NCBI RefSeq assembly: GCF_004010195.1
Contig: NC_057752.1
Span: 8,142,317-8,206,316, forward strand
Length of the DNA stretch: 64,000 bases
Origin: Chiloscyllium plagiosum
Taxonomy: Eukaryota
Direction: 5' to 3'
The position numbers and the translations under genes are program-made. Below, one piece after another: positions 17,429 to 59,147 of this stretch (position 1 is its first letter; every line of letters starts with the position of its first letter). The notes beneath the pieces were generated by a model that did not search any database, was not told where the DNA came from, and was given only the letters and a program-made list of their open reading frames with translations.

Positions 17429-17533
17429 CCTTCATTCCTGATGAAGAGCTTTTGCTCAAAATGTCGATTTTCCTGCTCCTCGGATGCTGCCTGGACCTGC
17501 TGTGCTTTTCCAGCACCGCTCTAATCTAGATAT
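17429..17533 (+). mobile_element. 105-bp PLE family A end
   Basis: 14-bp TSD atgaataggaaggg at 17415-17428 and 17534-17547. Begins 9 nt before ctgatga. Confidence 0.85.
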
Positions 17534-32645: not shown

Positions 32646-32711
32646 TAAGGTAAAGCATCAGTGGGATCAAGTTAAGTGGGAAGGGACTGGACACCATTTT
32701 GGTTTTGGCAA

Positions 32712-33999: not shown

Positions 34000-34457
34000 A
34001 AGTTCACTCTGCCAAGGACATGGAGGTCCTGGGCCTCCTTCACCGCCGCTCCCTCACCACCAGACGCCTGGAGGAAGAATGCCTCATCTTCCGCTTTGGA
34101 ACACTTCAACATCAGGGCATCAATGTGGACTTCAACAGTTTCCTCATTTCCCCTTCCCCCACCTCATCCTAGTTCCAAACTTCCAGCTCAGCACTGTCCC
34201 CATAACTTGTCCTACCTGCCTATCTTCTTTTCCACCTATCCACTCCACCCTCCTCCCTGACCTATCACCTTCATCCCCTCCCCCACTCACTTATTGTACT
34301 CTATGCTACTTTCTCCCCACCCCCACCAGCTTATCTCTCCACCCTTCAGGCTCTCTGCCTTTATTCCTGATGAAGGGCTTTTGCCCGAAACGTCGATTTT
34401 CCTGCTCCTCGGATGCTGCCCGAACTGCTGTGCTCTTCCAGCACCACTAATCCAGAA
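34000..34457 (+). mobile_element. PLE family A 3' fragment (GIY-YIG C-terminus plus terminal repeat)
   Basis: RRLEEECLIFRFGTLQHQGINVDF; near-identical to the reverse complement of 37870-38320. Confidence 0.9.
34363..34398 (+). ncRNA. Minimal hammerhead ribozyme motif (PLE family A), intact core
   Basis: attc CTGATGA a GGGC tttt GCCC GAAAC GTC gatt. Confidence 0.7.
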
Positions 34458-34764
34458 TACTTTTAGCAGAAGACTGTGGCAGAATAGATGCCACAACGTT
34501 GTGAAGATAGTTGGGCCTTTTCTTATTGGAGATACTCATCGGTTGGATGCTTCATTAGAGTTGTGTTCGTAAACAGACAGGATCACTTACAATTTTAACA
34601 TCAAGGGAGGATTTTTGATGAAGCAGGTGAAAATAATTCATAGGATTAAAAACTAACAAGTTATTTTGAGGAATTCTATCTACTGGCCATAGACAAGATT
34701 CAACTTCCACATAAAATTTTTCTACTTTAACTATGGACACAAAATCAGCTGATGCAGTTATATT

Positions 34765-35135
34765 AAGTTATAAATCACATAACATCAGGTTATAGTGCAA
34801 CAGGTTTGTTTGGTAGCAGCAGAATCTGTGTCTTATGATCCTACTCCACTGCTACCTGAAGAAAGAGCAGTGCTCCAAAAACTAGTAGTGCAACAGGTTT
34901 GTTTGGAAGTATGACCTGGTGTTGAGAGATTTCAGACTGGGGTGGACAAAGTTATAAAGCACACACCAGGTTATAGTCGGATCATCAGACACAGATCCTG
35001 CTCCACAGCTACCTGACGAAGAAACAGTGCTTCAAAAACTAGTACTTCCAAATCAATCTGTTGGATTATAACCAGGAGTTGTGAGATTTATAACTTTGTC
35101 CACCCCAGTCCAACACTGGCACCTCCACATCATGC
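34765..35135. mobile_element. Rearranged cluster of PLE family C ends
   Basis: Repeated caggttatagtgcaacaggtttg and inverted copies. Two tandem degenerate hammerhead-like motifs at about 34853 and 35010. Confidence 0.75.
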
Positions 35136-35229
35136 CAGATATATAACATCAAGTGCCCCGTTTCCAAAACACGACCATGAGATTCTTCAAAAGAAGCAAA
35201 GTTAGAAACCACAGGAGAACAAGGCCAGT

Positions 35230-35800
35230 GCACAGAGACCATAAAGATCTTTCAGCCCGATGGCTGGTCTGGTCCACAAGTTGATCATGGCTGATCTAAT
35301 AATCCTCAACTTCACTTTCCTGCCTTTTCCCTATTGCCTTTGTTTCACTTAATGATTAAAAATCTGTTTCAGCCTTCAATATACTTAATGACCCAGACTC
35401 AACAGCCCTCTGCAGAAGAAAAAAGTTCCTCATCTGTGTCTTAAGTGTGCAAACCATTATTCAGAGATTATGCCCACTGATCCAACTCTCCCACAAGGGA
35501 AAACAAACTCACAACATCTAGCCTGTCAAGTCCCCAAAAAATCTTATTTTAATAAGGTAATCTCTCATTCTTCTAAATTCCAATGAGCACAGACCAGCCT
35601 CATAAGACATTCCTTCCATTACTGGTATCAACTGAGTGAATCTTCTCTGGATTGCCTTGAATGGCAGTTTATCTTTCCTTTGAGAAAAGGACGAAAACGG
35701 TCTTAAGTATTCGAGATGTGGTCTGACTAGTGCCTTGTATAACTTTAGCAAGACTTCCGATCTCTTATATTACATTCCCTTTGAAATAAAGGACAATGTT
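35230..35800 (-). mobile_element. CR1-type LINE 3' part
   Basis: ORF 35518-35751 has LYKALVRPHLEY...AIQRRFTQLIP. Confidence 0.85.
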
Positions 35801-35974
35801 CCTTTGTTTTGGTTCAAATTCCCTTCAATAATATTTTCCTTTTGTGGTTCAACATGTTTATAAGGCCTGAATTTTAAGTTCACGAGAGATAGTTCACGAG
35901 TGACAGTAATAGGGTGGTTGTTATGGGGGACTTTAACTTTCCTGATATTGATTGGGAAAGCTATAGCTCAAGTT

Positions 35975-36210
35975 CGATTTATAACTTTGTCCACCCCAGT
36001 CCGAAATCTCTCAACACCAGGTTATAGTGCAACAGGTTTGTTTGGAAGTACTAGTTTTTGGAGCACTGCTCTTTCTTCAGATAGCTGTGAAGTAGGATCA
36101 TAAGACACAGATTCTGGTGCACAGCTACCTGAAGAAGCAGTGCTCCAAAAACTAGTACTTCCAAACAAACCTGTTGCACTATAACCTGGTGTTGTGTGAT
36201 TTATAACTTA
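35975..36210. mobile_element. Palindromic PLE family C insertion
   Basis: caacaccaggttatagtgcaacaggtttgtttggaagtactagtttttggagcactgct (36012-36070) is inverted at about 36137-36194. Confidence 0.85.
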
Positions 36211-36369
36211 ATATATCTGCATCAGCCTTTTAATTTTTCTGAACTAATTCTGAAAGCAAAAACACTAATAAGTAATATAAAAAAAGGCAAGAGAATCTTT
36301 AAATGTGTGAAAAGGAATAGCGAGAAATGGCTTCTCATAGGAGACAGGGAGTTCGAATACTACCATTTC

Positions 36370-37760
36370 AGGATGGTAATTAATGTACCAACTTTGCAGA
36401 TGACACCAATTGGAAAGGCAAATAGCGAGAAGTCTGCAGAGGGTTCTGGACAGGCTAAGTGAATGGGCAAAAACTTGACAGCTGGAATATTATATGGGAA
36501 AATGTGAGGTTATACTCTCTAGCAGGAAGAATAGAGCAATAAAATATTATTTCAATGGAGAAAGCAGCAACAGATGGATTTGGGGCTCTTGTACATAAAT
36601 CATAAAAAGCCAGCATGCATGTACAGCAGGTATTACGGCAGACAAATGCAATGCTGACCTTTATTTGAAAGGAAATAGTATAAAAATAGGGAAATATTGC
36701 TAAAACGAGACAAGGCACAAGTGAGACCACATCTGGATATCCTGGAGAATTCTGGTTCTTTCAAAGAAAACATATACAGAGGGACCTAGATTGTCCGAAT
36801 ATCAGATTATCCGAAGGAGATCTCGAGATCCCGATAGAAACATTACATCAAAGATGTGTTTCTAACACTGATCGTGTCTTTTGTTTAAAGTGATTAAAAG
36901 TGAACTCGGCTTACTGAAATGCTGCCGAGAACAGTCTTGCACTGATGGCAGCCCAAATGTCTGACCTCCATGCGCTGAGCTTCCACCCCACCCCCCAATT
37001 TTCTCTGCAGTTCTAAACAGGCGTGTACCCTAAACCCCCCCTTCGCCAGATTATCTCTCCAACATCATCCTGTACAGGGCAAAGGTGGAACCTGTCAAAA
37101 ACTTTGCACTGAAAATTTGTGTGTGGGGCTGTGTGTACACTATTTGGAGACCCCCCTCCCCCAAAAGGCAGCAGCAGCAGCAGTCTTGTCATTGGTGTCC
37201 AGTCCGGCTTCCCCGGGGGTGTGGTGGGGAGGGACAGTGTTGGACAGGGTTGCAGGGGAAGGGAGAGCGGGGAGTAATGTTGGACGTGGATCACATAGGG
37301 GGCAGTGTTGGATGCGGTTAGGGATGTGCAGGGGCTCGCGTGTAGTGTGCTGCTGCCTAGTTTTTCTGAACGGGGAGCGGACTTGAATGAGAATAGACCT
37401 TATTAACAGAAGCTTCTTAGAGAGAGAGAGACAAAGAATGCGTCCATCTCTGTAGCGTGTCTGTGTGTTTCACATTGTTGAAAGTTTCTTTCCCCTGGTA
37501 GGACATACTAGGACCAGAGGGCATAATCTCAGAGTAAGGAGTTGCTCATTTAAATCAGATGAGGAGTAATTTCCTCTCCTAGAGGGTAGTAAATCTGCAG
37601 AATTCTTTACTGCTGAGGCTGGGCCATTAAGTTCAATCAAGATTGAGAAAAACAAGATTGTTAATCATTAAGGGAATCAAGGATTGAGAAAAAGGCAGGA
37701 AAGTGGAGTTGAAGATGTTCAGATCAACTATGATCACACTGAACGAGCTTACTTCTTCCA
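36370..37760 (+). mobile_element. Decayed CR1 split by a DNA-transposon fragment
   Basis: FADDT at about 36395 and GKCEVI at about 36497; 3' end resumes at about 37480-37760. Confidence 0.7.
36777..37385. mobile_element. Probable Tc1/mariner (Tigger/pogo-like) non-autonomous fragment
   Basis: TA followed by CAGAGGGACCTAGATTGTCCGAA..GATTATCCGAA resembles a Tigger-type terminus. No second terminus was found, so the right boundary is uncertain. Confidence 0.5.
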
Positions 37761-37834
37761 CATCTTATCATCTTACAACATTCAGCAAGTTCTATAAGAC
37801 AGCTCCTCATAGATAATATCAAAAATAAAACTGG

Positions 37835-39012
37835 GTAAAAAAAATGACTGCAGATGCTGGAAACCAGATTCTGGATTAGTGGTGCTGGAAGAGCACAGCA
37901 GTTCAGGCAGCATCCGAGGAGCAGGAAAATCGACGTTTCGGGCAAAAGCCCTTCATCAGGAATACAGGCAGAGTGCCTGAAGGGTGGAGAGATAAATGAG
38001 AGGAGGGTGGGGAGAAAGTAGCATAGAGTACAATAGGTGAGTGGGGGAGGGGATGAAGGTGATAGGTCAGGGAGGAGGGTGGAGTGGATAGGTGGAAAAG
38101 AAGATAGGCAGGTAGGACAAGTCATGGGGACAGTGCTGAGCTGGAAATTTGCAACTAGGGTGAGGTGGGGGAAGGGGAAATGAGGAAACTGTTGAAGTCC
38201 ACATTGATGCCCTGGGGTTGAAGTGTTCCGAGGCGGAAGATGAGGCGTTCTTCCTCCAGGCGTCTGGTGGTGAGGGAGCGGTGGTGGAGGAGGCCCAGCA
38301 CCTCCATATTCTCGGCAGAGTGGGAGGGGGAGTTGAAATGTTGGGCCACGGGGCGGTTTGGTTGATTGGTGCGGGTGTCTCGGAGATGTTCCCTAAAGCG
38401 CTCTGCGAGGAGGCGTCCAGTCTCCCCAATGTAGAGGAGACCGCATCGTGAGCAACGGATACAATAAATGATATTGGTGGATGTGCAGGTAAAACTTTGA
38501 TGGATGTGGAAGGCTCCTTTAGGGCCTTGGATGGAGGTGAGGGAGGAGGTGTGGGCGCAGGTTTTGCGATTTCTGCAGTGGCAGGGGAAGGTGCCAGGCC
38601 GGGAGGGTGGGTTGTAGGGGGGCGTGGACCTGACCAGGTAGTCACGGAGGAACGGTCTTTGCGGAAGGCGGAAAGGGGTGGGGAGGGAAACATATCCCTG
38701 GTGGTGGGGTCCGTTTGGAGGTGGCGGAAATGTCGGCGGATGATTTGGTTTATGCAAAGGTTGGTAGGGTGGAAAGTGAGCACTCGGGGTGTTTTGTCCT
38801 TGTTACGATTGGAGGGGTGCGGTCTGAGGGCAGAGGTGCGGGATGTGGACGAGATGCGTTGGAGGGCATCTTTAACCACGTGGGAAGGGAAATTGTGGTC
38901 TCTAAAGAAGGAGGCCATCTGGTGTGTTCTGTGGTGGAACTGGTCCTCCTGGGAGGAGATACGGCGGAGGTGGAGGAATTGGGAATACGGGATGGAATTT
39001 TTGCAGGAGGTA
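37835..39012 (-). mobile_element. Young Penelope-like element, 5' truncated (RT thumb, linker, GIY-YIG endonuclease, terminal repeat)
   Basis: KNSIPYSQFLHLRRIS, then after a frameshift CHCRNRKTC...NIIYCIRCSRCGLLYIGETGRLLAERFREH...RRLEEERLIFRLGTLQPQGIN. Confidence 0.95.
37928..37963 (-). ncRNA. Minimal hammerhead ribozyme motif (PLE family A), intact core
   Basis: Reverse complement reads attc CTGATGA a GGGC tttt GCCC GAAAC GTC gatt. Confidence 0.7.
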
Positions 39013-39454
39013 GGGTGGGGGCTGGTGTCAGAGATGGGATGGAGCATAGTGCCTGTATTGGGAAATCTGTCCCCACATGGTACTAGCTTTCCAAACAGAC
39101 TTTTTTTGCTTAAGTTTCCACTCAAATTTACTTGTACATCATCAAGATCGAAAACAGAGCCAATGCAATCAGTATTTTGGAAAGTTTGTTTTATGCATTA
39201 ACAATATTCCTTAATGAATAGCAACCTCACAGTTTTATTAATACCACTAAAAACTGAGTTCCCACAATTAAATATTTCCAATCATTGGTCGGCATGGACA
39301 GGTTGGACCAAAGGGTCTGTTTCCATGCTATACATCTCTATGACTCTATAGCATCAATGAGTAACCCAATTCTAAATCTTAAAATTACTTTAAAATATAC
39401 AGAATTATTTACTAATTTCACTGCTAAGAGTACAAAGATCAACAGATTTGAAGA

Positions 39455-40700
39455 GAGGACATAGAGTGGTAGTAGAGGGTCGTTTTTCAGACTGGAGGCC
39501 TTCCACTACTGCTTGTGATTTAAATAAATGATTTGCAGTAAACATAAGAAACATGGTTAGTAAATTTGCAGATGATACCAAAATTGGAGCTGCAGTGGAC
39601 AGGAAAGAAGGTTAGTTCAGAGTACAACAGGGCAATGATCAGATGGGCCAATGGGCTGAAGAGTGGCAGGTGAAGATAAATGGGAGGTGCTTCATTGTGC
39701 AAAGGCAAATCAGGGCTGGACTTACAATACTTAACGGTAAGATCCTGAGGAACATTGCTGAACAAAGAAACCTTGGACTACAGGTCCAAAGTTCCTTGAA
39801 AGTGGAGTCACAGGTAGACAGAATAGTGAAGGTGAGTCACAGGTAGACAGAATAGTGAAGGTGGTGTTTGGTATGCTTACCTTTATTAGTGCATTGAGTT
39901 TGAGAGTTAGGATGTCATGTTGCAGCTGTACAGAACATTAGTTAGGCTATTTTTTGGTGTACTGCATTCAATTCTGGTCTCCCTGCTATAGGAAGGATGT
40001 TTGAAACTTGAAAGGGTTCAGAAAAGATTTATAAGAATGTTGCCACGGTTGGAGGATTTAGAGTCATAGAGATGTACAGCATGGAAATAGACCCTTCGGT
40101 CCAACCCATCCATGCCGACCAGGTATCCCAACCCAATCTAGTCCCACCTGCCAGCACCTGGCCCATATCCCTCCAAACCCTTTCTATTCATATACACATC
40201 CAGATGCCTCTTAAATGTTGCAATCGTACCAGCCTCCACCACATCCTCTGGCAGCTCATTCCAGACACGTACCACCCTCTGTGTTGAGCTAGAGGAAGAG
40301 GCCAAATAGGCTGGGGCTATACTTTCCCTGGAGCAGAGACTGAAGGGTAAACTTACAGAAGTCTACAAAATCATGATGGCATAGATAGGGTGAATAGCCA
40401 AGGCTTTTTTTCCCCTAGGGTAGGGGAGTCCAAACCTAGAAGGCACAGGTTTAAGGTGTGGGGGAAAAAAAACTTAATGGGGACCTAAGGGGCAACTTTT
40501 TCATTCAGTGGGTGGTGCGCACCTGGAAGTGGTGGAAGCTAGTACAATTACAACATTTAAAAGGCATCTGGATGGGTATATACGAAGGGTTTAAAGGGAT
40601 ATACTAACAAAGAGGACAAGATTAATTTAGGATATCCGGACAGCATGGAAGAGTTGAGCAGTAAGGTCTATTTCCATGCTGTACCTCTCTCTGATTCTAA
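39455..40700 (+). mobile_element. CR1 LINE 3' part with an opposite-orientation CR1 3' fragment at about 40060-40283
   Basis: SKFADDTKIG, QMGQWAEEWQ and LERVQKRF. 29-bp tandem duplication at 39805-39862. Confidence 0.88.
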
Positions 40701-41504
40701 ACAGGCCCAATTAGCAGAAATTCACATCACTGATCAATTAAATCTGCACAGTATTCAGTTTACAGGGAATGTATTTAAATTGTACTTCACATCAGTTCCT
40801 ACTGTTATCACTGAGATATTAGCCAGCAGGGAGAAATTGTACCAGGATTGATAGAGTAAATTGAAAATAGAGTTCATTCAAAAGAATTAGTTAAACAGTA
40901 TGAGGGTATTATGCCACAATGGTATAGCTAGAAGGCTTGAGTTCAAATCCCACCTGACAGAGGTGTGTCATAACTTGTCTGAATAGATTGATAAATATTG
41001 ATTTAGAACTATTGCAATCAGAGAGAGAAATTAGGGCTCTGTGGACTATGGCGAGAACTAGAACACTAACCCTAGCGATCTTTTTTTCCCACAAGATAAA
41101 TTAGAGAAGGTCCTCCAACTAAAAGCACTGAACAAACTTTTTAAAAAACCAAGCCAAACCAACTAGAAACCCTAGTGATAGGTAGATAGAGGCCAGCAGA
41201 GCAAAAGAAAAAAAAACAGACGGGGTACAAGAGAAACAGAAATCACTTAGGAAAGGCGATTTTTAAAGATGTCTTGAGCAACACCGAAGGAGATCAACTT
41301 CTAAATATTGGTTATCGAAGTTAAGAAAAAGCTCTTTAGCTGACAACACTCAGGTACAAGGCCATCTCTGAAGATTCGGCTCCCACCAACCCTCAGAAAG
41401 GTTTATTGTTCAAAAAATATGAATGGTATTTTCGTAAAAATTCCATCTGAAATCAATTAGCGAACTCAAGTAAACAGCAATTTATTATTATACGAATTAG
41501 ATTA

Positions 41505-43380
41505 AATTTATCCAACAATGTGATTCGGCAGCCGCGGTCGCTCCAGATTACTGTTGAACCAAGTGCCTCGCAAACGCGTTCGCTGGATTTCAGGCTGTAA
41601 TGGCGCCTTTAGGCCTCGACTTCCTGTTACAAATTAAAATGACCCCCAGCTCACAAACAAACACGAATCTTCTAAGTACAGCGTATGCACATATAAATCT
41701 TGGAATGATTCCAATGACCCCGAAGCTTTTAACATGTGTCAAAACTCACAAACCACGGGTAGGTTTACCTATACAGCACAGCTCCGTTCTGCTCAGTTCC
41801 TTCCCTCACAGGCTTCAACACAAAGAGGCTCAACGCAGGTCCTCCCAGTCAAGGGTAACTTCACGACAAAGAGCATTAAACTAGGTCCTCCCAGTCAAGA
41901 GGGACTCCAAGCTAAAACAAGGCGTATCATAGGCGCCTTTGACAACAAAATTTGAAAAACTCATTCCATGCCTCGTCGAATACTAAATACCATTTATTAA
42001 ATGGAAATCGCTCATTTTTATTTAAGATGTGCCATTTTCACAAACGTCATTTTAGAAAACATAACACACTCTACATAGAAGTTTTGTAAACTACTCTGAT
42101 ATAGGAACAAGGGATTGGACTGTATCTACATAGAATTCTGGTGTTTCCAATGAAAATTTAGGAATCAAATGCTTACACTATATTAAACATGAAAAAAAGG
42201 GAAACACCGGATTTTATTTTATGAACATAATTTTTGGCAGTCTGATTTGAGAGGTGATCGTACGAAATCTAGCAATCTATATCACTCTTGCAACGATCAT
42301 TCTTAACAATATTGCGGCGTCTTCTATCACGACGTTTATTTCTTCTAAAAAAAATCAGTATTCGATTAACCATTGTTAATTCAGATCACACAAACTTTCT
42401 GGCCAAAGTCGGGCAACTTACTCTAAGGCCTTCCAGAGCTGGTATATAATCGAAGATAGTTCACTACCCGCCTTGCTTACGAATGAGAGGAACTCGGCCT
42501 TCAAGGAGTAGTGAAACGAACCACACATTGCCTATGGAAAAGTAAACACCTTCCTCTCAACAACACACAACAGCAAACTAGTCCTTCAACTCCACTTAAA
42601 TGCACTGGGTCCCTTAGAAGCCACAAAATGTGGCCTTCATTATAGACACCAATCCTTCAACAATATTAAACCATAGACTATTATTTACATTATTATTTCA
42701 CTTCATCCAATAAAAATGAAAACAAGTGAAATTTCGATGTTTCCCTTTAAATTCACAAAATTACTGTGCAATCATTTGAAGTTAACTTCTCTTTCAAGCC
42801 ATTTACAAAACTAGGAAAGGAAAGAAAAGACCCACCTATTATCAATCTTATCCTTTTAAGGGTATAGGATCTTTTCCAATCATGGCACCGTTAACTCTTG
42901 TGAAATGCACAAAGTGAAGATCATTTGTGGCCAATTTCAGGAAAATCTCTACTTTGTTTCTTCCTTATAGATAGGATAGTGAAGAAGGCATGTCGGAGGC
43001 GAGGAGTGACCTTATAGAATTTATGAAGGGCATGGATAGGGTAAATAGACAGAGTCTTTTCCCTGGGGTCGGGGAGTCCAAGAACTAGAGGGAATAGGTT
43101 TAGGGTGAGAGGGGAAAGATATAAAAGAGACCTACGAGGTAACGTTTTCTCGCAGAGGGTGGTACACGTATGGAATGAGCTGCCACGTATGGAAGTGGTA
43201 GAGGCTGGTACAATTGCAACATTTAAGAGGCATTTGGATGGGTATATGAATAGGAAGTGTTTGGAGGTATATCGGCCGGGTGCTGGCAGGTGGGACTAGA
43301 TTGGGTTGGGATATCTGGTCGGCATGGATGGGTTGGACTGAGGGGTCTGTTTCCATGCTGTACATCTCCATGACTCTCTG
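41505..43380 (+). repeat. Near-identical copy of 8047-10158 with a 241-bp internal deletion
   Basis: Same sequence up to 42991, then a jump to the equivalent of 9775; ends at the CR1 3' tail. Confidence 0.95.
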
Positions 43381-43389
43381 ACTCTATTT

Positions 43390-44650
43390 ATTGCTGAATG
43401 ATTTACAAAGAACAACCAAGGTTAGGCTGATTGAATTAGCTGAAAAATTAGGGTTAGAGTTATAAGGGGGCTCAGAAAGATAACTGTGCAACATTTGAAG
43501 TTGGAAGAACAGCAACACAAATCACATGGTGAGTCAATTGAGTTAGTAGTATTTTACGTACAGATGAAGCCGTTTGAAATAAAGAAAGTAAAAGAAATGT
43601 TAAGAAAACTTGAACTGGTGGAAAAAGGAAAGGAAAGAGCATTTCAGGTAAAGAATATTTCAGGTAAGGGAAAAGGTGAAAGAAAGGAAATGCCAGCTTA
43701 AAAGTCCGAAACTAAACTAAAAGGCCTCTGACTCCATGGAACATGTTGACGAGGAAAGATTTGAATTTAATCCAAGATCTATTGGGGAGCTATTTAAATT
43801 TGTGCAAGCCCTCCCAAAATTTGATGGAGGAATCATTGTGGTATTTTTAATTTCTTTTGAAAAGATAGCTAAGCAGATGAGTTAGCTAAAATAAAACTGG
43901 ACATTGCTCACAGGCTCCTATAGATTATAAAGTGGAAAAAAAGACTATTCTCAGTATGAGTTGATCCCTGAGGCTTACAAACAGATATTTTTGAACATCC
44001 GGAACCATCCTGGAACTACTTTTTGAACTTGAGAGATAAACCAAAATAACTTTGATCATTGGATGCAGACAGTAAAGATAGAGACTACGTATATGAGACC
44101 TTAGGGATAATTATGAGCTGGTCCACAAATCCAAACATTACTTTCTGTCACCACTCACAAACCCAAGAAAGATAGAAAGTTGGAAGGTGAAAGAAAGTCA
44201 AATAGCCAAGAATAAGAACCGATACTGGGAAACTCTGCAGGCCAGACAGAGAAGTGCTGAGCTGAAAGTGATATCCAAAGGCCTCAGTATTTCCATTGTC
44301 ATAATCTGGGACACCTTCATGCATATTGCTGGAAGTTGTGAGGTAAATCCATATCAGGGTACACAAAGCCAGTGCAGTAAAATGAACCCTGACTGAGAGT
44401 GCAAAAGATCAGTTGTTACTCTGACCATGGCTGTGAGATGAAGTATAAACATTGCTGTGAGTACAGGGTAATTAAGCAAGGCACCTGAGAGTTACAAGGA
44501 ATTCTTGTGAAAATGAAAAGTAACTCCTTCTTCCTCAAATGAGGCAACTAAATCTGTAGTCATAGTAGAGATATGGGAGCCACTCAAGTCTTTCATTGGA
44601 GAAAGGTATGACTTTCCATCAGAGAATGACATGAATGTGAATGTTTTAGT
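43390..44650 (+). mobile_element. Older Gypsy element, gag/protease remnant
   Basis: ELFKFVQALPKFD...ISFEKIAKQM and YELIPEAYKQ parallel 52330-52580. Protease-like RDMGATQ at about 44567. Confidence 0.75.
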
Positions 44651-44659
44651 ATCTATTAG

Positions 44660-47600: not shown

Positions 47601-48800
47601 AAGAAATAGCGGGACATTTGGAAAAGCTTAACAGAATCAAACAGAGTCAACGTGATATTTTTGAAAGAGAAATCATGTTTGGCAAAGTTGCGAGAGTTCT
47701 TTGAGGATATAACAAGCAGAGTTGATAAAGGGGAAGATGTAATGTATTTGGATTTTAAGAAGTCATTCCATAAGGTGCCATTTAAAAGGTTATTGCATAA
47801 GAAAGGAGCTCATGGTATTTCAGGTAGTATTTTAGCATGGATTGAGGATTGGCTAACACACAGGAGACAGAGAATCAAAAATAATAGGTCTAGGAAAGAG
47901 GCCCTAGGAAAGACATAACTAGTTGAGTACCACAAAGATCAGTCCTAGGACATCAATTATTTACAATCTATATTAATGACCTAGAGGAAGGGGCAGAGTG
48001 TAATGTATCCAGATTCGCTGATGACACAAAATTTAGTAGGAGGGCATGTTGTGATGAGGACATAAGGATTCTGCAAGGGAATATAGACAGATTGAGTAAC
48101 TGAACAAAAACACGGCAGATGCAGAGTTTGATGTAGGAAAGTGTGAGGTCATGCTGTTTGGTAGGAAAAATCAAAAAGGCAGATTGCTAACTTAAATGGA
48201 GAAAGTCTCTTAAAAAGTGTAGCTGAGCGATTTGGGTGTTCTTATGAATGAAACACAAAACATTAGCATACAGGAACAGCAAGTAATTAAGAAGGTAACT
48301 GAAAATTTGGTCCTTAATAGTAGGGGATTAGAGTTTAAAAACATGGTGTTGGTGAGGCTGCACCTGGAGTACTGAGTTTGGAGCCCGCACGTAAAAAAAG
48401 GATATACTGGCATTGGAGGTTGTGTAAAATAATTCACCAGCTTGATTCCTGGGATGGAAAGGGTTGACTTATCAAGCTCAGCTAAACAAGTTCGGCCTTT
48501 ATTCGTTAGAGTTTAGAAGAATGAGGGGTGACCTTAATGAAACATGCAAGATTCTGAGGGAGCTTGACAGGGTAGATGTTGAGAAGACATGTCCACTAGT
48601 GGCGGGATCTCAAACTGGGGGGTATAGTTACAGATTAAGGAAACACTCATTTAAAACTGAGATGCAAAGGACTTTCTTCTCCCAGAGAGTGAATGTCTGC
48701 AATTCTCCACCTCAGGAAATTGTAGAGGTTAGATCACTAAAGGTATTTAAAGAGGAGGTAAATACATTTCTGAAATATCAGGGAATGCACAGTCTGAAAG
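44660..48800 (+). mobile_element. Near full-length decayed CR1 LINE (ORF1 esterase; ORF2 endonuclease and RT)
   Basis: ORF1 has VVVRIGTNDI...HWDGFH (SGNH-like). ORF2 has LYLNVCSICNK, YLDFKKSFHKVP, IYINDL, RFADDTK and FFSQRV. Confidence 0.92.
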
Positions 48801-49189
48801 TGTGGTGAAGGCAGGTTCACTTGAAGCATTCAAGATGGAATTGGGTGATTAATTGAATTGAAAGAATTGCAGGGATACAGGGAAAATTCAGGAGTTTGGC
48901 ACTTACTTAAAATGCTTGGAAAGTCAGTGTAGATATAACAGGCTGAATGGACTCCTTCTGTGTCATAACAATTTTATGAGCTGACAGCCATGCTGAGCTG
49001 GCATGAAAGAGGGATTGAGGTCTGGGACAGCACAGGCATGGTCTTATTGAGTGGCAGGGCAAGCCTGAGGGGCTGAATGGTTTTCTCCTGCTCTTGTTTA
49101 TTATGTTCTTGTGTTCTAAGCCAGTGCAGGTGTGTCAGTAGTAAGGACAGTGGAGGAACCAACTACTTTCGTCTTACCTTACAATGAAT

Positions 49190-50665
49190 TGTTAGGGATA
49201 AAAAGGCCATGTTTTCATATTAGAAGCAGAAGAACAAAAAGAATACTCAAGATAACTCATCCAGTTTAAAGAAGTCTTTCGGGATAAATCCATATGCACA
49301 ATGTTAACCACAGAATGCAGATGTACGTGAATCCTCCCCTATAAATAGCGTTCTTATCACTTAGGTCCAGAGAAACAAGCCCAGCTGAAAGTAGAAATCC
49401 AATACATTTTAAAAACCAAATAAGGAGCCCTCTTGTGGTGCAGCGGGTATGTCCTTACCCCTGTACTGGGCGGACATATTTCAAGTCTCACCTGCACCAG
49501 GGGTGTGCAATAACATCTCTGAATAGGTTGATGATAAAAATAGGTTAAATAAAAAAAATAATCAAAGCAGCTATAGATCCCCAGCAATGTTAAAGTTTTA
49601 AAGTTGATGGTTCACCCAGATGCTGTATCAACTTCAGAAAGGTCGTGGTAGTAACAAAGGCAGACACCTAACCAATTCCTTGTTTACAAATCTGTATTGA
49701 TAGGATTGGAAATGCCAGATATTTTGCCAAAATATATTATTAAAAAGATATTGGCAGATTCATTTTCCACCGAGAGCTAAAGAGATATTGGCCTTTGTCA
49801 TGCCAGACAGTCTTTTCCAATGTCAAGTGATGCCATTTAGGGAAACATAGAAGCATTGAAAGTAGGAACAGAAATAAGCCATTCTGACCTTTGATTCTGC
49901 TCCAATAATCAATACGATCATAACTGATCATCCAACCCAATACCCTGTTTCGACTTTTGCCTCATACCCTTTGATCACTTTAGTCCTAAGAACTATATCT
50001 CACTCCTTCAGGCTAAAACATTGCTTCAGCAACTTTTCAATCATTGGTTACCTTGATGATGTACTGGCATAGAGTGACACTTAGGACAACCACTTGGAAC
50101 AACTGGAAGATTTGTTTAGGAACTTACAATTGGCTGAATTAGTGATAAAGCTTGCCAAAAATGAATTTTCAAAGGCATAAGGAACTTACCTAGGGCATGT
50201 AGTAGTGCAAGGACAAGTGCTACCAAGAACAGCAAAAGTACAACTATTAATGGAGATTTCCACCCCTAAAACCAAATGAAAAATAATGAGATTTTTGGGG
50301 ATATGTGGTTTTTGTTGCAAACTTGACCCAAATTTCAGCACAAGAGCTCCTCTGCTGACAGATTTGCTCAAAATGTAAGCCAAGGTAATGTGCCAAGGGG
50401 AGTACTACACATCTTCTGAAAAGTTTAAATCATTTTGATAAATGAACAAGTGTGAGCTACACCAAACTTAACTAAGCTCTTCAAGGTAACAACTGATGCT
50501 AGGGATTTGAGAGTGGCTGCTGTTACAAGTTGATGAGTCAGCTGCAGATAAGCCAGTAGGAATTTCTGTAAAAAGTTAAACTGACACCAAAGGAGATCCT
50601 CTATGATGGAGAAAGAAATCCTGGGATTGCTACCAGCTGTTATATATTTTGAAGTATATGTCTAG
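49190..50665 (+). mobile_element. Older Gypsy element, RT/RNase H remnant, with nested SINE and CR1 3' piece
   Basis: CINFRKV, YLDDVL (50049), FLGICGF and TDARD (about 50492). Probably the continuation of 43390-44650. Confidence 0.75.
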
Positions 50666-50699
50666 CAGAGCTCGAGATATGTTGGTATCTGCTGGTCAT

Positions 50700-51360
50700 G
50701 ATAGAAATAAAAGGATAAGGTATCTCCTGAATGTGTGGCTGGAAAGATGGTGCTGAAGAAAGGCTTTAGATTCTTGGGATAGGCTCTGGCAAGATGTAAC
50801 CTGTACAAGTCAGGCACAGTCCAGGTATATATCCTCAAAAGGGCAAACAAATCAAGAGCTTCCTGCATGAAAGATGAGATAGAAATTAAAATAAAGAAGA
50901 AAAACTGTGCTTATGACAAGTATTAGGTCGAAAATACAATTGAGAACCAAGAAAATTACAGAAGGATCAAAGGGGAAGTGCAAAAGCCTATTAGAGAAGC
51001 AAAGATGGATTATGAGAAAAGACTGGATGCTAACATAAAGGAGAATCCCAATGTTTTCTCCAGGCACATTAATAATGAAAGGGTGCTAAAAGAAACCAAA
51101 AAGGGGATTTACACATGAAGGCCAGAGGAATGGCTGAAGTGTCAAGTTAATAGTTTGCATTGGGGTTGCTGCTATTCAGGTCATAGTGACAGAAGAGGAA
51201 GCTCTGTCACTGGAAGAGTTCAAAATTGATAAGGAGGAAGTGTTGGATAAGCTATTGACACTTAACATTGACAAGGAACTGGGACCAGATGAGATGCATC
51301 AAAGATATATTGAAGGAAATGAGAATGGAAATTGCAGGGGTACTGGCCATAATCATTCAG
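50700..51360 (+). mobile_element. CR1 fragments
   Basis: ORF1 tail ggctttagattcttggga and ORF2 linker LGPDEMH. Confidence 0.65.
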
Positions 51361-51367
51361 TTAGTGA

Positions 51368-51790
51368 TTTTTGAGAAGATTTGTAGCTCAGGTTGAGGTT
51401 CTGGATCTAAGTTTGCTCACTGAGCTGGAAGGTTCGTTTTCAGACGTTTCATCACCATACTAGGTAACATCATCAGTGAGCCTCTGGTGAAGCACTGGTG
51501 TTATGACCCACTTTCTATTTCTGTGTTTAGGTTTTCTTGGGTTGGTGATGTCATTTCCTGTGGTGATGTCATCTCCGGTTCTTTTTCTCAGTGGGTGGTA
51601 CATGTGGTCCAAGTTGATGTGTTTGTTGATAGAGTTCCAGTTGGAATACCATGCTTCTAGAAATTCTCATGCATGTCTCTGTTTGGCTTGCTCTAGGATG
51701 GATGTGTTGTCCCAGTCAAAATGGTGTCCTTCCTCATCTGTATGTAAGAATACTAGTGATAGCGGGTCATGTCTTTTTGTGGCTAGTTGA
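51368..51790 (-). mobile_element. PLE family B 3' fragment
   Basis: HQLATKRHDPLSLVFLHTDEEGHHFDWDNTSILEQAKQRHA. Confidence 0.88.
51440..51479 (-). ncRNA. Minimal hammerhead ribozyme motif (PLE family B), intact core
   Basis: Reverse complement reads tca CTGATGA t GTTACC tagtat GGTGAT GAAAC GTC tga; stem I tca/tga, 6-bp stem II with two G-U pairs. Confidence 0.72.
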
Positions 51791-51791
51791 T

Positions 51792-51827
51792 GTTCCTGAA
51801 GAAGGGCCTGTGCCCGAAACGTCGAAT
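51792..51827 (+). ncRNA. Minimal hammerhead ribozyme motif heading a roughly 95-bp PLE family A unit (to about 51885)
   Basis: gttc CTGAAGA a GGGC ctgt GCCC GAAAC GTC gaat; stem I ttc/gaa. Confidence 0.72.
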
Positions 51828-54098
51828 CTCCTGTTCCCTGGATGCTGCCTGACCTGCTGTGCTGTTCCAGCAATAAAGTTTCAACTTTGGTGGCTTACAA
51901 AAGGTGAATAAGGCAAAGGTGTTGGAATTGGCAGACAAGCTGGAGTTAGAGTTACCTTCATCCATGAGAAAAGGACAGATAATTACAGCAACAGCTCGGC
52001 ATTTAAACTTGCTAGAAATGCCATCAGAATCTTTGGCTAAAATTCAATTGAAAATGAAGCAGCTTGAGTTAGAGGCAAAAGAAAGAGAAAAAAATGAAAC
52101 AGTTTGAATTACGATTAAAAACTGAGCAAAAAGAAAAGGACAAAAATCACTTGAGGAGAACAGAAAGAAAAGGAGAGAGAAGAAAGGGAGAAAAAGAGAC
52201 AGTTTGAACTTCAGAAATTGGCACTTAGACAGGAAAGTTGGCATAAAAGAATGGAGATGAAGGCAGAAGGTAAGATTAGTGAGGAAGATATTGAGGATGA
52301 ACAAATCCATGGTTGCCAAAGGCCTGATGGGGATCTGTTTAAATATATTCAAACTTTGCCTAAATTTGATGAGAAAGACGTGGAAACCTTTTTCATCTCA
52401 TTTGAGAAGGTGGCTAAACAAATGTAGTGGCCAGTGACCATGTGGGTTTTTATTGATCCAGACAAAACATGTAGGTAGAGCTAGTGAGGTATTCGCATCA
52501 CTATCAGAGGAGGTATCTGGGGAGTATGAGGAGGTGAAAAAAGCCACCTTAAGTGCTTATGAGCTTGTACCAGAAACCTACAGATGTTTCAGGAATATAA
52601 GGAGGGACTCTAGTCAACCCTATATTGAGTTTGAAAGGATCAAACAAAGTAATTTTGATAGGTGGATAAGGGCATTAAGAATAGAGCAAACATATGACAC
52701 TCTTAGAGAGACAATTATTTTGGAGGGGTTCAAAAATTCACTTCCTGAAGTAGTGAGAACTCCTGTGGAAGAGCAGGGAGTTAAAACAGCAAGGTTAGCA
52801 GCTAAAATGGCTGATGATTATGAGTTGGTCATAAATCAAAGTTTGGCTTCCAACATCAATTTCAATCTGCGAGGAATAGGAAATGGGGAAAAGAGAAATC
52901 CTCACATGGAAAGGGAAAGGTAGATCTCAGTGAAGATCATAAGGATAACTTACCACAGGGTAAAAACGAAACCCATGAAGGGGAAAGAGAAATGTTATCA
53001 CTGTAATAAAGTAGCCTACATGAAATCACAGTGTTGATGGGTTAGAAAAAGCACTGGGAAGATGGATACCGGAAAGCAGGATAAGCCAGTGAATTTTGTT
53101 GGAATGATAACAAAAAGCACAGTGTAGGGTAGAAAACTGCACCAGACTGTACTGGTCGGAGGTTGGTTAAGGAGGAAGTGCCAGATCTTCCAAAATCATT
53201 TACGTGCGAAGGTAAAGTTTACTCGTATCGGCCAGGAGCAGCAGGTAAGGAGGTTACAATATTAAGAGACAGCGAATCATGTCAATCTATGATGTTGACA
53301 GATGAGGAGGTATGTAACTTGGAAGGACAATTGCCAGAAAAAGTGCTAGTATGTGGAAATCACCGTGAGACAAGAAGTGCTCAGTTATGTAAAGTGAGGT
53401 TAAAGTGTCCAATGAAAACTGGAGTAGTGGTGGTAGGCGTACTGGAAGAACTCTCAGCTCCAGGGATACAATTTGTCCTTGCTAATGATATAGCTGGCTC
53501 ACAGGTAGGAATAATGCCTTCCGTGGTTGAAACGCCAGTGGATAATCAGGCAATTGAGATATTACAAGAAGCATATCCTGGGACTGTGTGGTAACGAGGT
53601 CACAAAGTCACCAGTTGAAACAGGAGGAGAAATCAAAGAGTACAGATAAGAGAGTTGAAGTAGAATTATCAGAGACCATGTTTGATCAAATGATTGAGAA
53701 AAGACAGGAACAGGTGGAGGACAATGTGGATATCTTTAGCTCAGAGAAATTAACAGATTTACAACAGAAAGATGAAAAACTGAAGCAATTGTATCAAAAA
53801 GCATACACGGAAGTAGAATCTGAGTGTATCCCAGAATGCTACTATCTTAAAAATTTCCTTAATGAGGAAATGGAGATCATCACATATTCATGGCCAATGA
53901 GAAATGGGCAGAAGTTCATCAAGTTATATTACCAGTGGGTTATAGAAAGGATGAGTTGTGGGTAGCATATGAACTCTCAGTAGGTCATTTAGTTCTAAAA
54001 AGAACTCAAGCTAAAATACAAAAACATTTTTACTGGCCTGGACTGCATAAGGATGTAGTTGAATTTTGCCAGACATACCATACATGTCAGGTAATTGT

Positions 54099-54463
54099 CA
54101 AGAGTGTGGTGCTGGAAAAGCACAGCAGATCAGGCAGCATCAGAGGAGCAGGAGAATCAATGTTTCAGGCATAAGCCCTTCATCAGGAATGAGGCTTGTG
54201 GGCTGCGCGGGCTGAGAGATAAATGGAAGGGGGGGAGGGGCTGGAGGGGAAGGTAGCTGAGAATGAAATAGGTAGATGAAGGTGGTGCACAAGGTGATAG
54301 GTCAGAGAGGAAGGTGGAGTGGATGGATAGGAAAGACGATTGACAGGTCAAGAGGGCAGTGCCGAATTGGAAGGTTGGGACTGGGATAAGGATGGGTGAG
54401 GGGAAATGGGGAAACTGGTGAAATCCACATTATCCCTCTTGGTTGCAGGATCCCAAGGCGGAA
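54099..54463 (-). mobile_element. PLE family A 3' fragment inserted in the Gypsy integrase
   Basis: IFRLGILQPRGI tail and terminal repeat; taattg on both flanks. Confidence 0.85.
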
Positions 54464-54510
54464 GATAATTGGAAAACCACAGGCAGTAATAAAAACCACA
54501 TCTTTAACCC

Positions 54511-54743
54511 GCACATTCTCCCTGTGTCTGCGTGGGTTTCCTCCGGGTGCTCCGGTTTCCTCCCACACTCCAAAAATGTGCAGGTTAGGTGAATTGGCCA
54601 TGCTAAATTGCCCGTAGTGTTAGGTGAAGGGGTAAATGTAGGGGAATGGGTCTGCCTGGGTTGCGCTTCGGCGGGTCGGTGTGGACTTGTTGGGCCGAAG
54701 GGCCTGCTTCCACATCGTAAGTAATCTAATCTAATCTAATCTA
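54511..54743 (+). mobile_element. HE1-type SINE, 5' truncated, in the Gypsy integrase
   Basis: V-domain plus (taatc)n tail. Confidence 0.9.
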
Positions 54744-57649
54744 TTCTTTAATACTTAGTCCTGAATTTGAGGAACCTTTAACAAGCATCTTAATTGATTG
54801 TGTAGGACCCCTACCTAAAACAAAAAGTGGGAATCAGTATTTGTTAACAATAATGGATGTGTCCACTATATTTCCAGAGGCCATTCCATTATGCAATATC
54901 ACAGCTAAAAGGATTGTAGAGGAATTACTCAAATTTTTCACAAGATATGGATTACCCACAGAGATACAATCAGGTCAAGGGTCAAAGTTTACATTAAAAT
55001 TATTCAAGGAAGTTATGGACAGCTTAGGAATAAAACACTTCAAATCCACTGCGTACCATCCAGAGTTGCAGGAAATGCTCGAAAGGTGGCATCAGATGAT
55101 AAAAACAATGTTGAGGGCTTATAGATGATTAGGATAAAAGAATTCAGTCTGTACTTTTTGCCGTTAGAGATGAACCAGATGAATTGACTAAATTCAGTCC
55201 ATTTGAATTAGCTTTTGGGCACGAAGTGAGAGGACTATTAAAATTGATTAAGGAGAAATTGGTGAGTAAGAATTCAGAAACCACAGATTTGGATTATGTG
55301 TCAAATTTTAGGGAATGTTTTTAAATAGAGCAGGGAGTTGGCTAGACAGCATTTAAAAGTATCACAGCATATGATGAACAGGAAGCAGACAAGAAATCAA
55401 AAACTCGCAATTTTGCTATTGGAGATAAAGTGTTAGTGTTATTTCCAATGATAGGTGAACCTTTAAAAGCAAAGTTTAGTGGACCTTATCAAATCAAAAG
55501 GAGACTAAATGGGGTGAATTATTTGCTAAGGACTCCAGACAGAAAGAAATCTCACAGAGTGTGTCGTATGAATATGATAAGGGAAGGAAAGCAAAAGGAG
55601 AATGTGTTACTGGTTACAACATTGAGAGAAGAACCAAGTTCAGAGGATTCTGAACTAGACATTCCTCAAATCAAATTGGACAATGAGGAAGTTGTCAAAA
55701 ATTGGGATAACTTATTGAGTTACCTTCCAGAGGAAAATTGAAATCACATGGGGAGATATGTGGAAATAAGCTGGGAAGTACTAATTTAAATATGCATGAT
55801 GTAGATATAGGAATTGCTGTTCTAATTAAGCAATTTCCATATAGACTGCACCCTCTAAAGTTGGCACAGGTTCAAAAGGAGGTTGAATGCATGCTTCAAG
55901 ACAACATAATCAAATCGCAATGACTGCAGCTCACCCATAGTAACAGTGCCAAAACCAGATGGCACCCAACAGTTTTGTGTGACTATCGCAAAGCCAGTGC
56001 AGTTACTAAGTCTGATTCAAATCTGATTCCACATTTGGAAGACCATACTGAAAAGGTGGGACAAGCCACTTTTATTTCTAAGTTGGACTCACTCAGAGGA
56101 TATTGGCAGGTACCTTTATCCGAAAGAGCAAAGGCAATTTCGACTTTCATAATACTTAATGGACTGTATCAATTTAAAGTCATGCCATTTGGTATGAAAT
56201 AAAGTCATTTCTGGATAACCCAATTGTGTGGTTTACATCGATGACCTGGTGAGTTTTAGTCACACACGGAAGGAACATTTACAACACTTAACAGAATTAT
56301 TTGATCAACTTCAAGAGGTAGGCTTGGTGATAACCCTGGCTAAAAGTGAATTTGCCAAGGCCCAAGTCACCTTCCTGGGCCATTTTATCAGACATGGACA
56401 GATGGCCCCACAGACTGTAAAAACAAAAGGTAATTGGAGAGTTTCCCATACCATCGATGAAGAGAGCAGTACTACAATTCCGGGGATTGGGTGGGTTTTA
56501 TTGGAAATTCGTACTGAATTTTAGCAGCATGGCTACTCCACTCACTGAATTACTAAAGAAAGGCAGGAAGTTTCAGTGGATGGCAGGCTGTCAGAAGTCA
56601 TTTGACAGCCTGAAAGCTGTGTTAATCACTACCTCAGTATTAGCCACACCTAATTACGCAAAGCCATTCAAGGTGGCTATCGATGCAAGTGATGTGGGTA
56701 TTGGTGCCGTACTCTCACAAGAAGAGGACGAGAAGATAGAAAGACTATTGGATATTCCTCCTGGAAACTGAACATTCATCAGCAGAAATATTCGACAATT
56801 GAGAAGCAGACTTTGAGCCTGGTGTTGGTGTGACAACATTTCAACATTTGTGTTGCCAATAATGTGTCTGAGACAATCATATATACTTTTCATAACCCAT
56901 TCAAGTTTTTGAAGAAATTTAAGGACAAAAATTCCAGTCAGTTTAGATGGAGCTTTTTATTGCAGCCATTCAATTTGAAAATTGTAATGTGGCAGGGCGA
57001 GAAAATGTTATTGGTGACACATTGTCAAGACTTGGATCAGAAATGGAGGTATTCGATGGCAGGAGTGAACAGACTGAAATAGAATGTAGTAGTGCATGTT
57101 CTAGTCAATGTAATATATATGTATTGTAATGTACTAACACTGTAAGAGTAAAGGGTTTTAAAATGAAGCCATCTTTGTGTATTGATGATTCATTTTTTTA
57201 AGGGGGGGGGGGTGATGCTGCCCTTTAATAAGGTTATGTTGTCCTTGGGTTTTTTTCATAAGGGATCATAAATGTGGAGGTTCCAATATGTCTGGAAATG
57301 GCTACATGAAAACAATGGTGGGGAGTGACCAGTTCTCCCAGTTCAGGTTTTTTTTCTAGTTTGGTTTATTTTTAGCAAGCAGTCAAAAACTGCTGGGGAC
57401 CTAGAAAAGCAGCTACAGTGAAAAGAGGTTCCATGCTTCAACAGAGGTCTTGCCTGAAATTTCTCTCTGAATTCTCTCCTGCCTGAGTTTGAATTTACCA
57501 TTTGCCAAGGGGTGTGTTTATGGGATGTTGCAGGGATTGGAATAGCTCCTTCATTGATTTATGATAGAGTCGGTTGGGTTATCAAATATGTTAAGTTCTA
57601 AATTCTATTTTCTTTTGTTGGTGTTTCATTTGTAGCGTTTAAATAAATT

Positions 57650-59147
57650 ATGCCGTAGTTGTGGGTAAGTTCGCTGAGCTGGGAAGTTGATTTGCAGACA
57701 TTTCATCCCCTGCATGGTTGACATCGTTTGGAGCCTCTTGTGAGGCGCTGCTGTACTGTGTCTTCTGGAGTTTATTTAGTTCCATTCTTGCTGCTTCCGG
57801 TTGCCGGTTCTGGTAGTTCATTATAGTGGCCAGTATATTGGGTCCTGGTCTATGTGTTTGTTGATGGAGTCCTTGGATGAGTGCCATGCTTCTAGAAACT
57901 CTCTGGCTGTCCTATGTTTAGCTTTTCCTATGTTCATTGTTTTCTCTCAGTCGAGTTTGTGGTCCTTGTCATCTGTGTGTATGGCTACTCAGGACAGCTG
58001 GTCGTGGCATTTAGTGGCTAGTTGGTGTTCATGGATGCAGATTGCTAATTGTCTGCTGTTTGTTCTATATAGTGTTTCATGCAGTCTTTGCATGGAATCT
58101 TGTAAATTATGTTAGTCTTACACATGATGGGTATAGGATCCTTTGTTCTGGTGAGTTGTTGTTTGTCGATTTATGGGCTGTCATAAATCCGAGTGGTGGG
58201 AGACTCTAGCCAGAGAAACAATAGTCAACCTCCTGGACAATCAAAACAAACGATATGACAAGAACCTATCAACAACAACTGCACACTCAAACTACTGGAC
58301 CTGTGCTTAACAATACACGTCACATTCAACAGCCAGATATATGAACAGATATTAACATATATGAGATTTTTTTTTATCTAAGGTAGCGTGGCTAGTGTGT
58401 GGTGATGTGGCATGTCCTCGTCCGGTTGTTTGCTAGGCATCTAAGGATGAAGTTGCAGGGGTATCCATTCTTGGTGTAGAGGTGTTCTTCTTCCTTTCTC
58501 AGGTCAGAAGTGCTGTAGTATGTTGTAGCCCTTTTTAACAGGGTCCTAATGCAGCTTCTCTTGTGTGTGCTCGGGTGGTTGCTGTTGTAGTTCAGGAGCT
58601 GGTCTGTGTGTTTGGCTTTTCTGTACACTTTTGTGGTGCATTCACCGTTCTGTGTTCTTTCTACTAATTTAGGATTGAGATGAGGAGAAATTCCTCGTCT
58701 AGTCTTCGCATCGCTGCTTCTGCTATGAGCCTGAAGATGGGTGAGCCCATCCGTGTCCCATTGATCTCTTCATATATCTGGCTGTTGAATGTGACGTGTA
58801 TTGTTAAGCACAGGTCCAGTAGTTTGAGTGTGCAGGTGTTGTTAATAGGTTCTAGTTATGTCGTTTGTTTTGTTTGTCCAGGAAGTTGGCTATTGTCTCT
58901 CTGGCTAGAGCTTTGTCAATTGATTCATCCTTGTCTACATTTATGTTCTTGATGATCCTGGAAGCAGCAGGAATGGAACCAAATAAATTCCAGAAGACAC
59001 AGTAGAGCAGCGCTTCACAGGAGGCTCCAAAGCACTGAAGATGTCACTAGACAGGGGATGAAATGTCTGCAAATCAACATCCCAACTTGGTGATCATAAC
59101 CATAACCACGACAACTGGCACCCGAGCTACAACTCTTTATGCAAACC
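57650..59147. mobile_element. Rearranged Penelope-like element (family D) with inverted ends, inserted in the Gypsy LTR
   Basis: YRKAKHTDQLLNYNSNHP and NGTRMGSP on the minus strand. 57660-57800 is inverted at 58960-59105. taaataRatt on both flanks. Hammerhead-like gca CTGAAGA t gtcac..gggat GAAAT GTC tgc at 59032-59070. Confidence 0.85.

Follow-up and report, generated by a model that had tools for sequence, protein, structure and literature searches.

Minimal hammerhead ribozyme motifs in five families of Penelope-like elements of Chiloscyllium plagiosum, with clustered 5' ends and U6 junctions at the predicted cleavage site

A stretch of 64,000 nucleotides from the genome of Chiloscyllium plagiosum (NCBI RefSeq assembly GCF_004010195.1, contig NC_057752.1, positions 8,142,317 to 8,206,316 of the forward strand; hereafter the window, numbered from its first base) contains many minimal hammerhead ribozyme motifs, which an earlier note on this DNA had assigned to the termini of about five families of Penelope-like elements (PLEs). 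Two questions on such motifs are stated as open in the literature (PMC4209133, PMC8557442, PMC11167929): if the hammerheads of PLEs cleave inside animal cells at all, and which part of the transcript they occupy. We consider it probable that the motifs are minimal type I hammerheads from the terminal repeats of five PLE families, whose hundreds of thousands of insertions are for the most part short and decaying, and that the hammerhead of the Neptune-type families likely occupies the first ~35 bases of a capped RNA and likely cuts a minority of these RNAs in the germ line. What the genomic sequence demonstrates is the linkage to reverse transcriptase and GIY-YIG coding remnants, two 3' ends, 5' ends clustered at the hammerhead's edge, head-to-head pairs of a tailed and an untailed copy, and U6 sequence at the predicted cut in three families.

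By core, stems and position, the motifs are the known minimal type I hammerheads of PLE terminal repeats, situated near the 3' end of the element. The majority lines of families A, B, C and E, and copies of family D, show the core CUGANGA...GAAA...UH complete and both stem I and stem II present, while the stems differ between the five families with their pairing kept; at the family level this bears out both the covariation of stem I and the conservation of the core over its flanks. Stem I reads (A)UUC/GA(U/A)U in family A (usually just 2 bp and one U.U pair), UCA/UGA in B, CAC/GUG in C, GCA/UGC in D and GUU/AAC in E, and stem II of family D carries an A.G mismatch common to the whole family. 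Helix III, without a loop, is the palindrome ACGU or AGCU (15.2-16.2) across all families. A strict descriptor (CTGAnGA, stem II of at least 4 bp, GAAA, NN-TH) gave 90 matches in a 1.2-Mb sample of the 3.56-Gb genome (10-kb stretches, 120 in all, taken from the 25 largest contigs and amounting to 1.15 Mb once N is excluded). In 88 of them an extra unpaired nucleotide follows A9 and precedes 10.1, in 87 stem II opens with G (10.1), and 57 retain the Watson-Crick palindrome, most of the remaining ones looking CpG-decayed. Within each family all positions decay alike, CpG sites worst, as is expected for dead copies, and most copies are decayed passengers rather than working ribozymes. Paired double changes in the stems within a family exceed chance at three of five pairs (p = 0.006, 0.0003 and 0.03, against 0.23 and 1.0 at the others); these were not accepted as a sign of selection, since subfamily ancestry or hairpin-templated mutation gives the same pattern.

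The assignment to PLE termini was upheld for families A to D by searches that tie them to PLE coding sequence, and for family E by eye only. In the window, a GIY-YIG frame (PF01541, E 4.4e-5) precedes family A. Family C lies 375-938 nt 3' of the end of a second Neptune-type open reading frame (ORF) in 14 loci out of 20, one of which had supplied the query, across a CA-rich 3' untranslated region (UTR), and this ORF comprises a YIDD reverse transcriptase (RVT_1, 5e-7), a C-x4-CxxC linker and a GIY-YIG domain (0.0018, under the curated cut-off). Family B is found ~340-395 nt 3' of an apparently linker-less Poseidon-type GIY-YIG in 8 of 30 loci, with no Cys linker in the ~10-15 residues preceding the endonuclease; family D is likewise located 3' of a Poseidon-type GIY-YIG, within the window, and family E follows a linker-bearing, Neptune-like ORF remnant. 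The CX2-5CxxC linker reads PCHGRRCKMC in family C and PCSCRMCNTC in the family E remnant; that of family A is damaged in the window copy and was read by eye as C-x4-CxxC in a remnant at another locus (L102). A reverse transcriptase followed by a C-terminal GIY-YIG with a CCHH motif is the layout of endonuclease-bearing (EN+) PLEs, seen here on fragments only, and a PDB search with the reverse transcriptase fragment returned nothing significant. By the motif definitions given for the Neptune and Penelope/Poseidon clades in Craig et al. 2021 (PMC8557442), and not by a tree, families A and C classify as Neptune-type, as E probably does too, and B and D are probably Poseidon-type; the linker is shared by Nematis.

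Every family has a main 3' end and an optional tail that ends ~35 nt further on. Counted from CUGA, the two ends lie at about +94 and +130 in family A, +82 and +124 in family C, and +79 and +115 in family B. In family B an ATG at stem II overlaps the core and opens a frame that continues through the tail in tailed copies, the tail ending ~110 nt past this ATG; no copy was found in which the frame runs on into the ORF. The geometry of family B appears to be that of the Poseidon element of Anolis (PAc), for which Frangieh et al. 2024 (PMC11167929) give an ORF start at stem II and two internal reverse transcription start sites that define a tail 111-118 nt into the ORF. In contrast to PAc, with its ORF start in the hammerhead, family A has an apparent ORF start beyond the tail (locus L261). 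Short copies bear 10-12-bp target-site duplications and are therefore insertions, not deletion remnants. Pairs of copies are arranged head to head rather than tail to tail (55 vs 0 in family A, 26 vs 2 in family C), and in 46 of the 55 and 25 of the 26 head-to-head pairs, respectively, the tail is on one arm. The optional tail of 30-40 bp, the inverted copies and the variable target-site duplication are all traits of EN+ PLEs. The copies that we observed were solo or head-to-head, with no genome-wide search aimed at head-to-tail hammerhead arrays.

Where these insertions begin bears on the position of the hammerhead in the RNA. Most Neptune-type copies are insertions of 90-135 bases, and their 5' ends cluster at the 5' edge of the hammerhead. 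For family A we kept 138 of 250 profile matches in 1.2 Mb of evenly spaced sequence (identity of 85% or more, 45 or more aligned bases, free of N and of edges, and with the truncation inside 195 nt) and set aside 10 longer copies as well as older and E-like ones. The 5' end falls within -5 to +4 of CUGA in 57 of the 138 and within -15 to +14 in 88. In family C, where 47 of 83 matches were kept (16 were longer), 24 of the 47 begin within -15 to +4. A length effect was ruled out as the cause of the peak, because tailed and untailed copies share its position (30 of 73 and 27 of 65 family A starts, respectively, within -5 to +4). Both peaks sit on an A, 4 nt before CUGA in family A, where it also opens stem I, and 8 nt before it in family C; in both families this A stands in an initiator-like context. 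The expectation that copies begin at the predicted cut was rejected, as two of the 138 family A copies start at +28, one of them an alignment artefact. At another locus (L213, near 3236, minus strand) a family A 3' UTR is joined straight to +28 with the hammerhead skipped, which a deletion or a ligation could have produced.

The base that precedes the putative start was counted by hand in listings anchored on that start, which were chosen after the 5' peak had been seen and cover the first 100 of 15,411 matches for family A and the first 100 of 2,584 for family C, all on one contig (C1). In family A the ratio of G to A was 56:44 against an expected 41:59 (p = 0.002). In family C it was 62:11, and 29:8 (p = 4e-6) after a filter that removed 33 G rows explainable by an inverted or duplicated arm, three A rows that belonged to longer copies, and likewise the T rows. 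The enrichment of a non-templated G at the 5' edge suggests that the hammerhead opens a capped transcript, and we regard a capped start at this edge as likely but not proven.

Three observations weigh against such a start. The family A peak is broad (about -9 to +7), family B has no sharp pile-up of 5' ends (21 copies), and in unselected solo copies the test for a cap-derived G was not significant (22 of 67, p = 0.33, in family A; 8 of 20, p = 0.11, in family C). The first and the last of these would agree with the view that the short copies result from common 5' truncation where copying pauses, or go back to short non-autonomous masters, similar to short interspersed elements (SINEs) or retrozymes, with a fixed boundary; animal retrozymes have been reported as derivatives of PLE termini in a preprint (bioRxiv 10.64898/2026.07.22.740005). 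Against this view, the peak lies at the same place in tailed and untailed copies, in two families whose upstream sequences are unrelated it coincides with an initiator-like A with G enriched just before it, and the copies are solo or head-to-head, not tandem arrays. We therefore hold truncation or short masters to be an unlikely source of the copies, though one that keeps some weight.

Indirect evidence on cutting itself comes from chimeras with U6 RNA. Hammerhead cleavage leaves a 5'-OH end. U6 has a cyclic phosphate at its 3' end, which RtcB can join to a 5'-OH only, according to Moldovan et al. 2019 on U6/LINE-1 (L1) chimeras made by RtcB ligation (PMC6789731). Within the terminal intervals that our searches covered, we found nine U6-PLE insertions that show a junction (seven in family A and one each in C and B), and in all nine the five terminal Ts of U6 join the first base after the predicted cut. 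Two family A junctions, both exactly after GUC, were present among 30 of 48 U6 loci. A family A pattern that allowed junctions from +15 to +45 gave seven matches, every one at +28, from six insertions of several subfamilies, and the seventh insertion (locus L237) came from an Rfam search for U6. The single match of the family C pattern has its junction directly after CUA, and that of the B/D pattern, in family B, after GUC, give or take one base within the T run. The junction comes after position 17 of the hammerhead in all three families, whose local sequences differ (GUC/G, CUA/G and GUC/U). Three insertions carry the same junction on both inverted arms, as would be expected if the chimeric RNA already existed when it was copied. 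A pattern over the common 5' edge (-15 to +5) had three matches, none of them U6 or a hammerhead, so that no edge junction was found in this interval.

We regard these junctions as a likely record of cleavage in vivo followed by RtcB-type ligation. With roughly a million copies by extrapolation, the genome records rare intermediates, and the presence of U6 at the predicted scissile bond in members of two PLE clades speaks indirectly for cleavage in the germ line. At one locus (L261:900-1530, minus strand) a U6-joined family A copy spans the cut, the tail and ~430 nt of the apparent ORF start, and is then joined to a second copy that likewise starts exactly at the cut; this arrangement suggests that RNA fragments of the element itself may be ligated to the cut end as well. 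At L266/L267 two cut-site junctions within an inverted insertion enclose a number of U6 segments that are nested and in part duplicated.

Other results speak less favourably for cleavage. Approximately 11 of the 30 U6 copies directly precede the 5' end of one abundant repeat, and one precedes another sequence (L235, L242, L243, L247, L252, L255-L260 and L238); these partners, read by eye, we take to be SINE-like and tRNA-like, respectively. Two further copies of the 30 precede a PLE endonuclease region, again by eye, so that U6 chimeras arise by other routes too. The U6 patterns covered neither junctions at +5 to +15 nor mutated anchors. In one raw single-cell RNA run, 2,068 element reads from both strands formed no pile of ends at the cut or at the edge, and a sister run contained no element reads.

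The hammerheads might instead be catalytically idle RNA signals for protein binding or RNA pairing, with the U6 junctions made by a host nuclease or by template switching of a reverse transcriptase stalled at the 3' foot of the structure. Minimal hammerheads are weakly active in vitro (PMC4209133), and for anole Poseidon, core mutants leave insertion unaffected and no RNA-seq ends were found at the cut (PMC11167929). U6 is joined to SINE-like 5' ends too, and a weak excess of family A 5' ends near +27 to +32 (11 of 138 copies, among which are several internal deletions) could reflect a stall. What makes idle signals quite improbable is the junction itself: it follows position 17 in three families in spite of their differing local sequence, it is absent from the far commoner 5' edge, and its occurrence on both arms of three insertions fits a pre-formed chimeric RNA. 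Moreover, the 3' strand of stem I lies 3' of the junction, so that a stall at the foot of the structure would fall 3-4 nt further on.

If the hammerhead of the Neptune-type elements does open a capped RNA that is occasionally cut, the following course of events would connect the observations. Transcription would begin at the initiator-like A, 4 nt (family A) or 8 nt (family C) upstream of CUGA. The element protein would then prime reverse transcription at two internal sites 85-130 nt downstream, and copying from the first terminal repeat would run off the capped end to yield the short copies. Internal priming at two sites has been described in vitro only, for anole Poseidon (PMC11167929). Two RNAs copied into one target site could give the inverted pairs, and the same pairing of RNAs could provide the second strand needed by the palindromic helix III. 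Occasional cleavage would leave a 5'-OH to which an RtcB-type ligase could join the cyclic phosphate of U6, with the chimera being retrotransposed afterwards. Cleavage is dispensable for insertion, because most copies carry an uncut hammerhead. More speculatively, protein-mediated pairing of RNAs might activate the dimer, and cleavage might act as decapping.

A more specific proposal, which we find possible but rather doubtful, is that the Neptune-type hammerhead is a cap-proximal switch. As the first structure of the mRNA, it would become active when a dimeric element protein pairs two RNAs through the ACGU/AGCU palindrome, these being the same RNAs that give rise to head-to-head insertions; the capped first ~32 bases would be removed, and the 5'-OH would be captured by RtcB. 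Start site, both priming sites and ribozyme cut would then each have left a direct record in the genome. PLE hammerheads reportedly cleave as dimers, as described in a 2017 paper in RNA Biology. In a nearest-neighbour model the active dimer can be drawn and gains no energy over two monomers (-13.7 vs -14.8, -10.7 vs -11.0 and -16.3 vs -16.2 kcal/mol), and it is less stable than a wrong dimer, so that the folding lends dimer activation no support. The clustered 5' ends predict a start site to the base, and start and cut together give exact tests for the bench.

The motif class is already known, and it is the record of U6 junctions and the clustered 5' ends that go further. Minimal hammerheads in the pseudo long terminal repeats of metazoan PLEs, including Neptune and Poseidon of fishes, were described by Cervera and De la Pena 2014 (PMC4209133). 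Those motifs have the same core, the unpaired nucleotide before stem II, G10.1-C11.1, the palindromic 15.2-16.2 and no loop III; they too form several covarying families per genome, and their copies are mostly solo with some opposite-strand pairs. That paper lists ~4,000 copies in coelacanth and ~9,000 in Xenopus, as compared with ~99,600 exact-pattern copies here, and it contains neither in vivo evidence nor a mapping of copy ends, which we mapped. The PAc hammerhead is protein-assisted and dispensable for insertion (PMC11167929); whereas no RNA ends were found at its cut, genomic U6 junctions mark the predicted cut in C. plagiosum. As in the U6/L1 chimeras, the 3' end of U6 is joined to retroelement RNA that is then retrotransposed. 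In contrast, the L1 junctions are variable and require an unknown endonuclease (PMC6789731), while in the present case a PLE is the partner and the junction is fixed at the predicted ribozyme site. Non-LTR retrozymes (LTR, long terminal repeat; Cervera and De la Pena 2020, PMC7229834; Li et al. 2026, bioRxiv) resemble the present elements in their type I hammerheads, very high and comparable copy number (126,247 in axolotl) and link to PLE termini, and they are described as active as dimers with RtcB-ligatable ends. They differ in having tandem repeats, canonical hammerheads and circular RNA, as opposed to solo or head-to-head copies that keep the PLE tail. Neither the PLE hammerheads of sharks nor chimeras of U6 and PLEs were the subject of any paper in our literature search, in which subscription journals were largely uncovered.

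In the genome-wide search, the exact-pattern copies divided into 80,723 of family A, 17,087 of family C and 1,815 of family B, with no match for the reversed-pattern controls. The profile search gave 430 copies in 1.15 Mb (238 of A, 88 of C, 78 of E and 26 of B/D), and the set is thus as dense and diverse as the earlier note had held. Extrapolation gives estimated totals of ~1.3 million copies and ~270,000 descriptor-positive motifs. Matching by chance in repetitive DNA, for which the short core and the absence of any Rfam hammerhead match in the window at E<=1 might speak, can be dismissed, since strict-descriptor matches far exceed those in shuffled sequence (6 in the window, where 100 dinucleotide shuffles gave a mean of 0.07 and never more than 1; 42 in evenly spaced genomic sequence totalling 600 kb, where 10 shuffles gave 0-2), features outside the descriptor recur, and the stems covary across five families.

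Within the window, the profile search found 29 pieces of these families. Intact family A cores had been placed at 34363 (+), 37928 (-) and 51792 (+), and complete cores are present there, at 34367 (+), 37959 (-) and 51796 (+); the loop variants tttt, ctgt, ttat and tcct were every one observed, and the cuts predicted 3' of 34394 and 51823 proved correctly positioned. The first hammerhead (34363-34398, +, predicted cut after 34394) belongs to an element 3' end at 34005-34464 (+) with endonuclease C-terminus, 3' UTR and hammerhead and without the tail. The second (37928-37963, -, predicted cut after 37932) lies in a 5'-truncated element at 37830-38802 (-) that retains a linker remnant, the GIY-YIG endonuclease, the 3' UTR, the hammerhead and the ~35-nt tail. 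The family A ends at 34005-34458 and 37868-38322 are inverted, 94.5% identical and ~3.4 kb apart, one tailed and one untailed, and may be two arms of a single insertion enclosing other DNA. The third hammerhead (51792-51827, +, predicted cut after 51823), of the GAAT subfamily, has a 4-bp stem I; its copy starts at the hammerhead's 5' edge and stops at 51891.

The remaining family A copies comprise a head-to-head short pair at 11664-11904 (untailed arm on the minus strand, tailed arm on the plus strand) with a 12-bp target-site duplication around it; a solo ~120-nt copy at 16639-16761 (-) that runs from the hammerhead's 5' edge and has a 10-bp target-site duplication and a decayed core; and a 3' end at 32704-33025 (-) with a near-intact hammerhead (core at 32841). 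An older 3' end at 54096-54389 (-; core at 54186) lies within a decayed LTR-retrotransposon remnant (52438-55741, +) with SCAN-like and integrase domains by Pfam. The compensatory GAGC/GCTC stem II reported at 17446 is present in a short copy at 17428-17530 (+), in which the catalytic core has changed from GAAA to AAAA and is probably dead.

A complete family B hammerhead, claimed at 51440 on the minus strand with stem I tca/tga, was confirmed at 51440-51479 (-), with its core at 51476 and a predicted cut after 51443, inside a Poseidon-type 3' end with GIY-YIG remnant and tail (51361-51831, -). Other family B pieces are head-to-head 3' ends at 31972-32644, both with damaged cores, and a short decayed copy at 21843-21932 (+). 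For family C the paired stem I CAC/GUG stands; the family is intact elsewhere in the genome, and no intact core occurs among the window copies, which are a copy with an inverted tail and a damaged core (16099-16473), a head-to-head short pair with damaged cores and a 7-bp shared flank (19259-19478), and two clusters of decayed copies (34762-35136 and 35976-36212). Family D forms an inverted insertion with coding remnants at 57656-59138; the proposed stem I gca/tgc was found, and the hammerhead at 59032-59070 (+, core at 59035) has one base deleted in stem II, while a decayed hammerhead lies near 57733 (-). Family E had been described as degenerate, and its copies are all decayed: a hammerhead at 30769-30844 (-), 3' of the Neptune-like ORF remnant (about 30900-31940), and short copies at 20931-21004 (-) and 33629-33686 (+).

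Several features of the window are separate from the hammerheads. Positions 8047-9533 and 41505-42991 share 1,487 bases at 100% identity, 33 kb apart, and represent either a very recent duplication or an assembly artefact. A long near-perfect palindrome at 11259-11346 scores below the gathering threshold of a microRNA precursor model and is probably a hairpin repeat rather than a microRNA. Finally, a single-frame stretch of 220 amino acids at 5871-6533 (-) resembles ZC3H10; it contains a region of coiled-coil-like character and two zinc fingers of the CCCH type.

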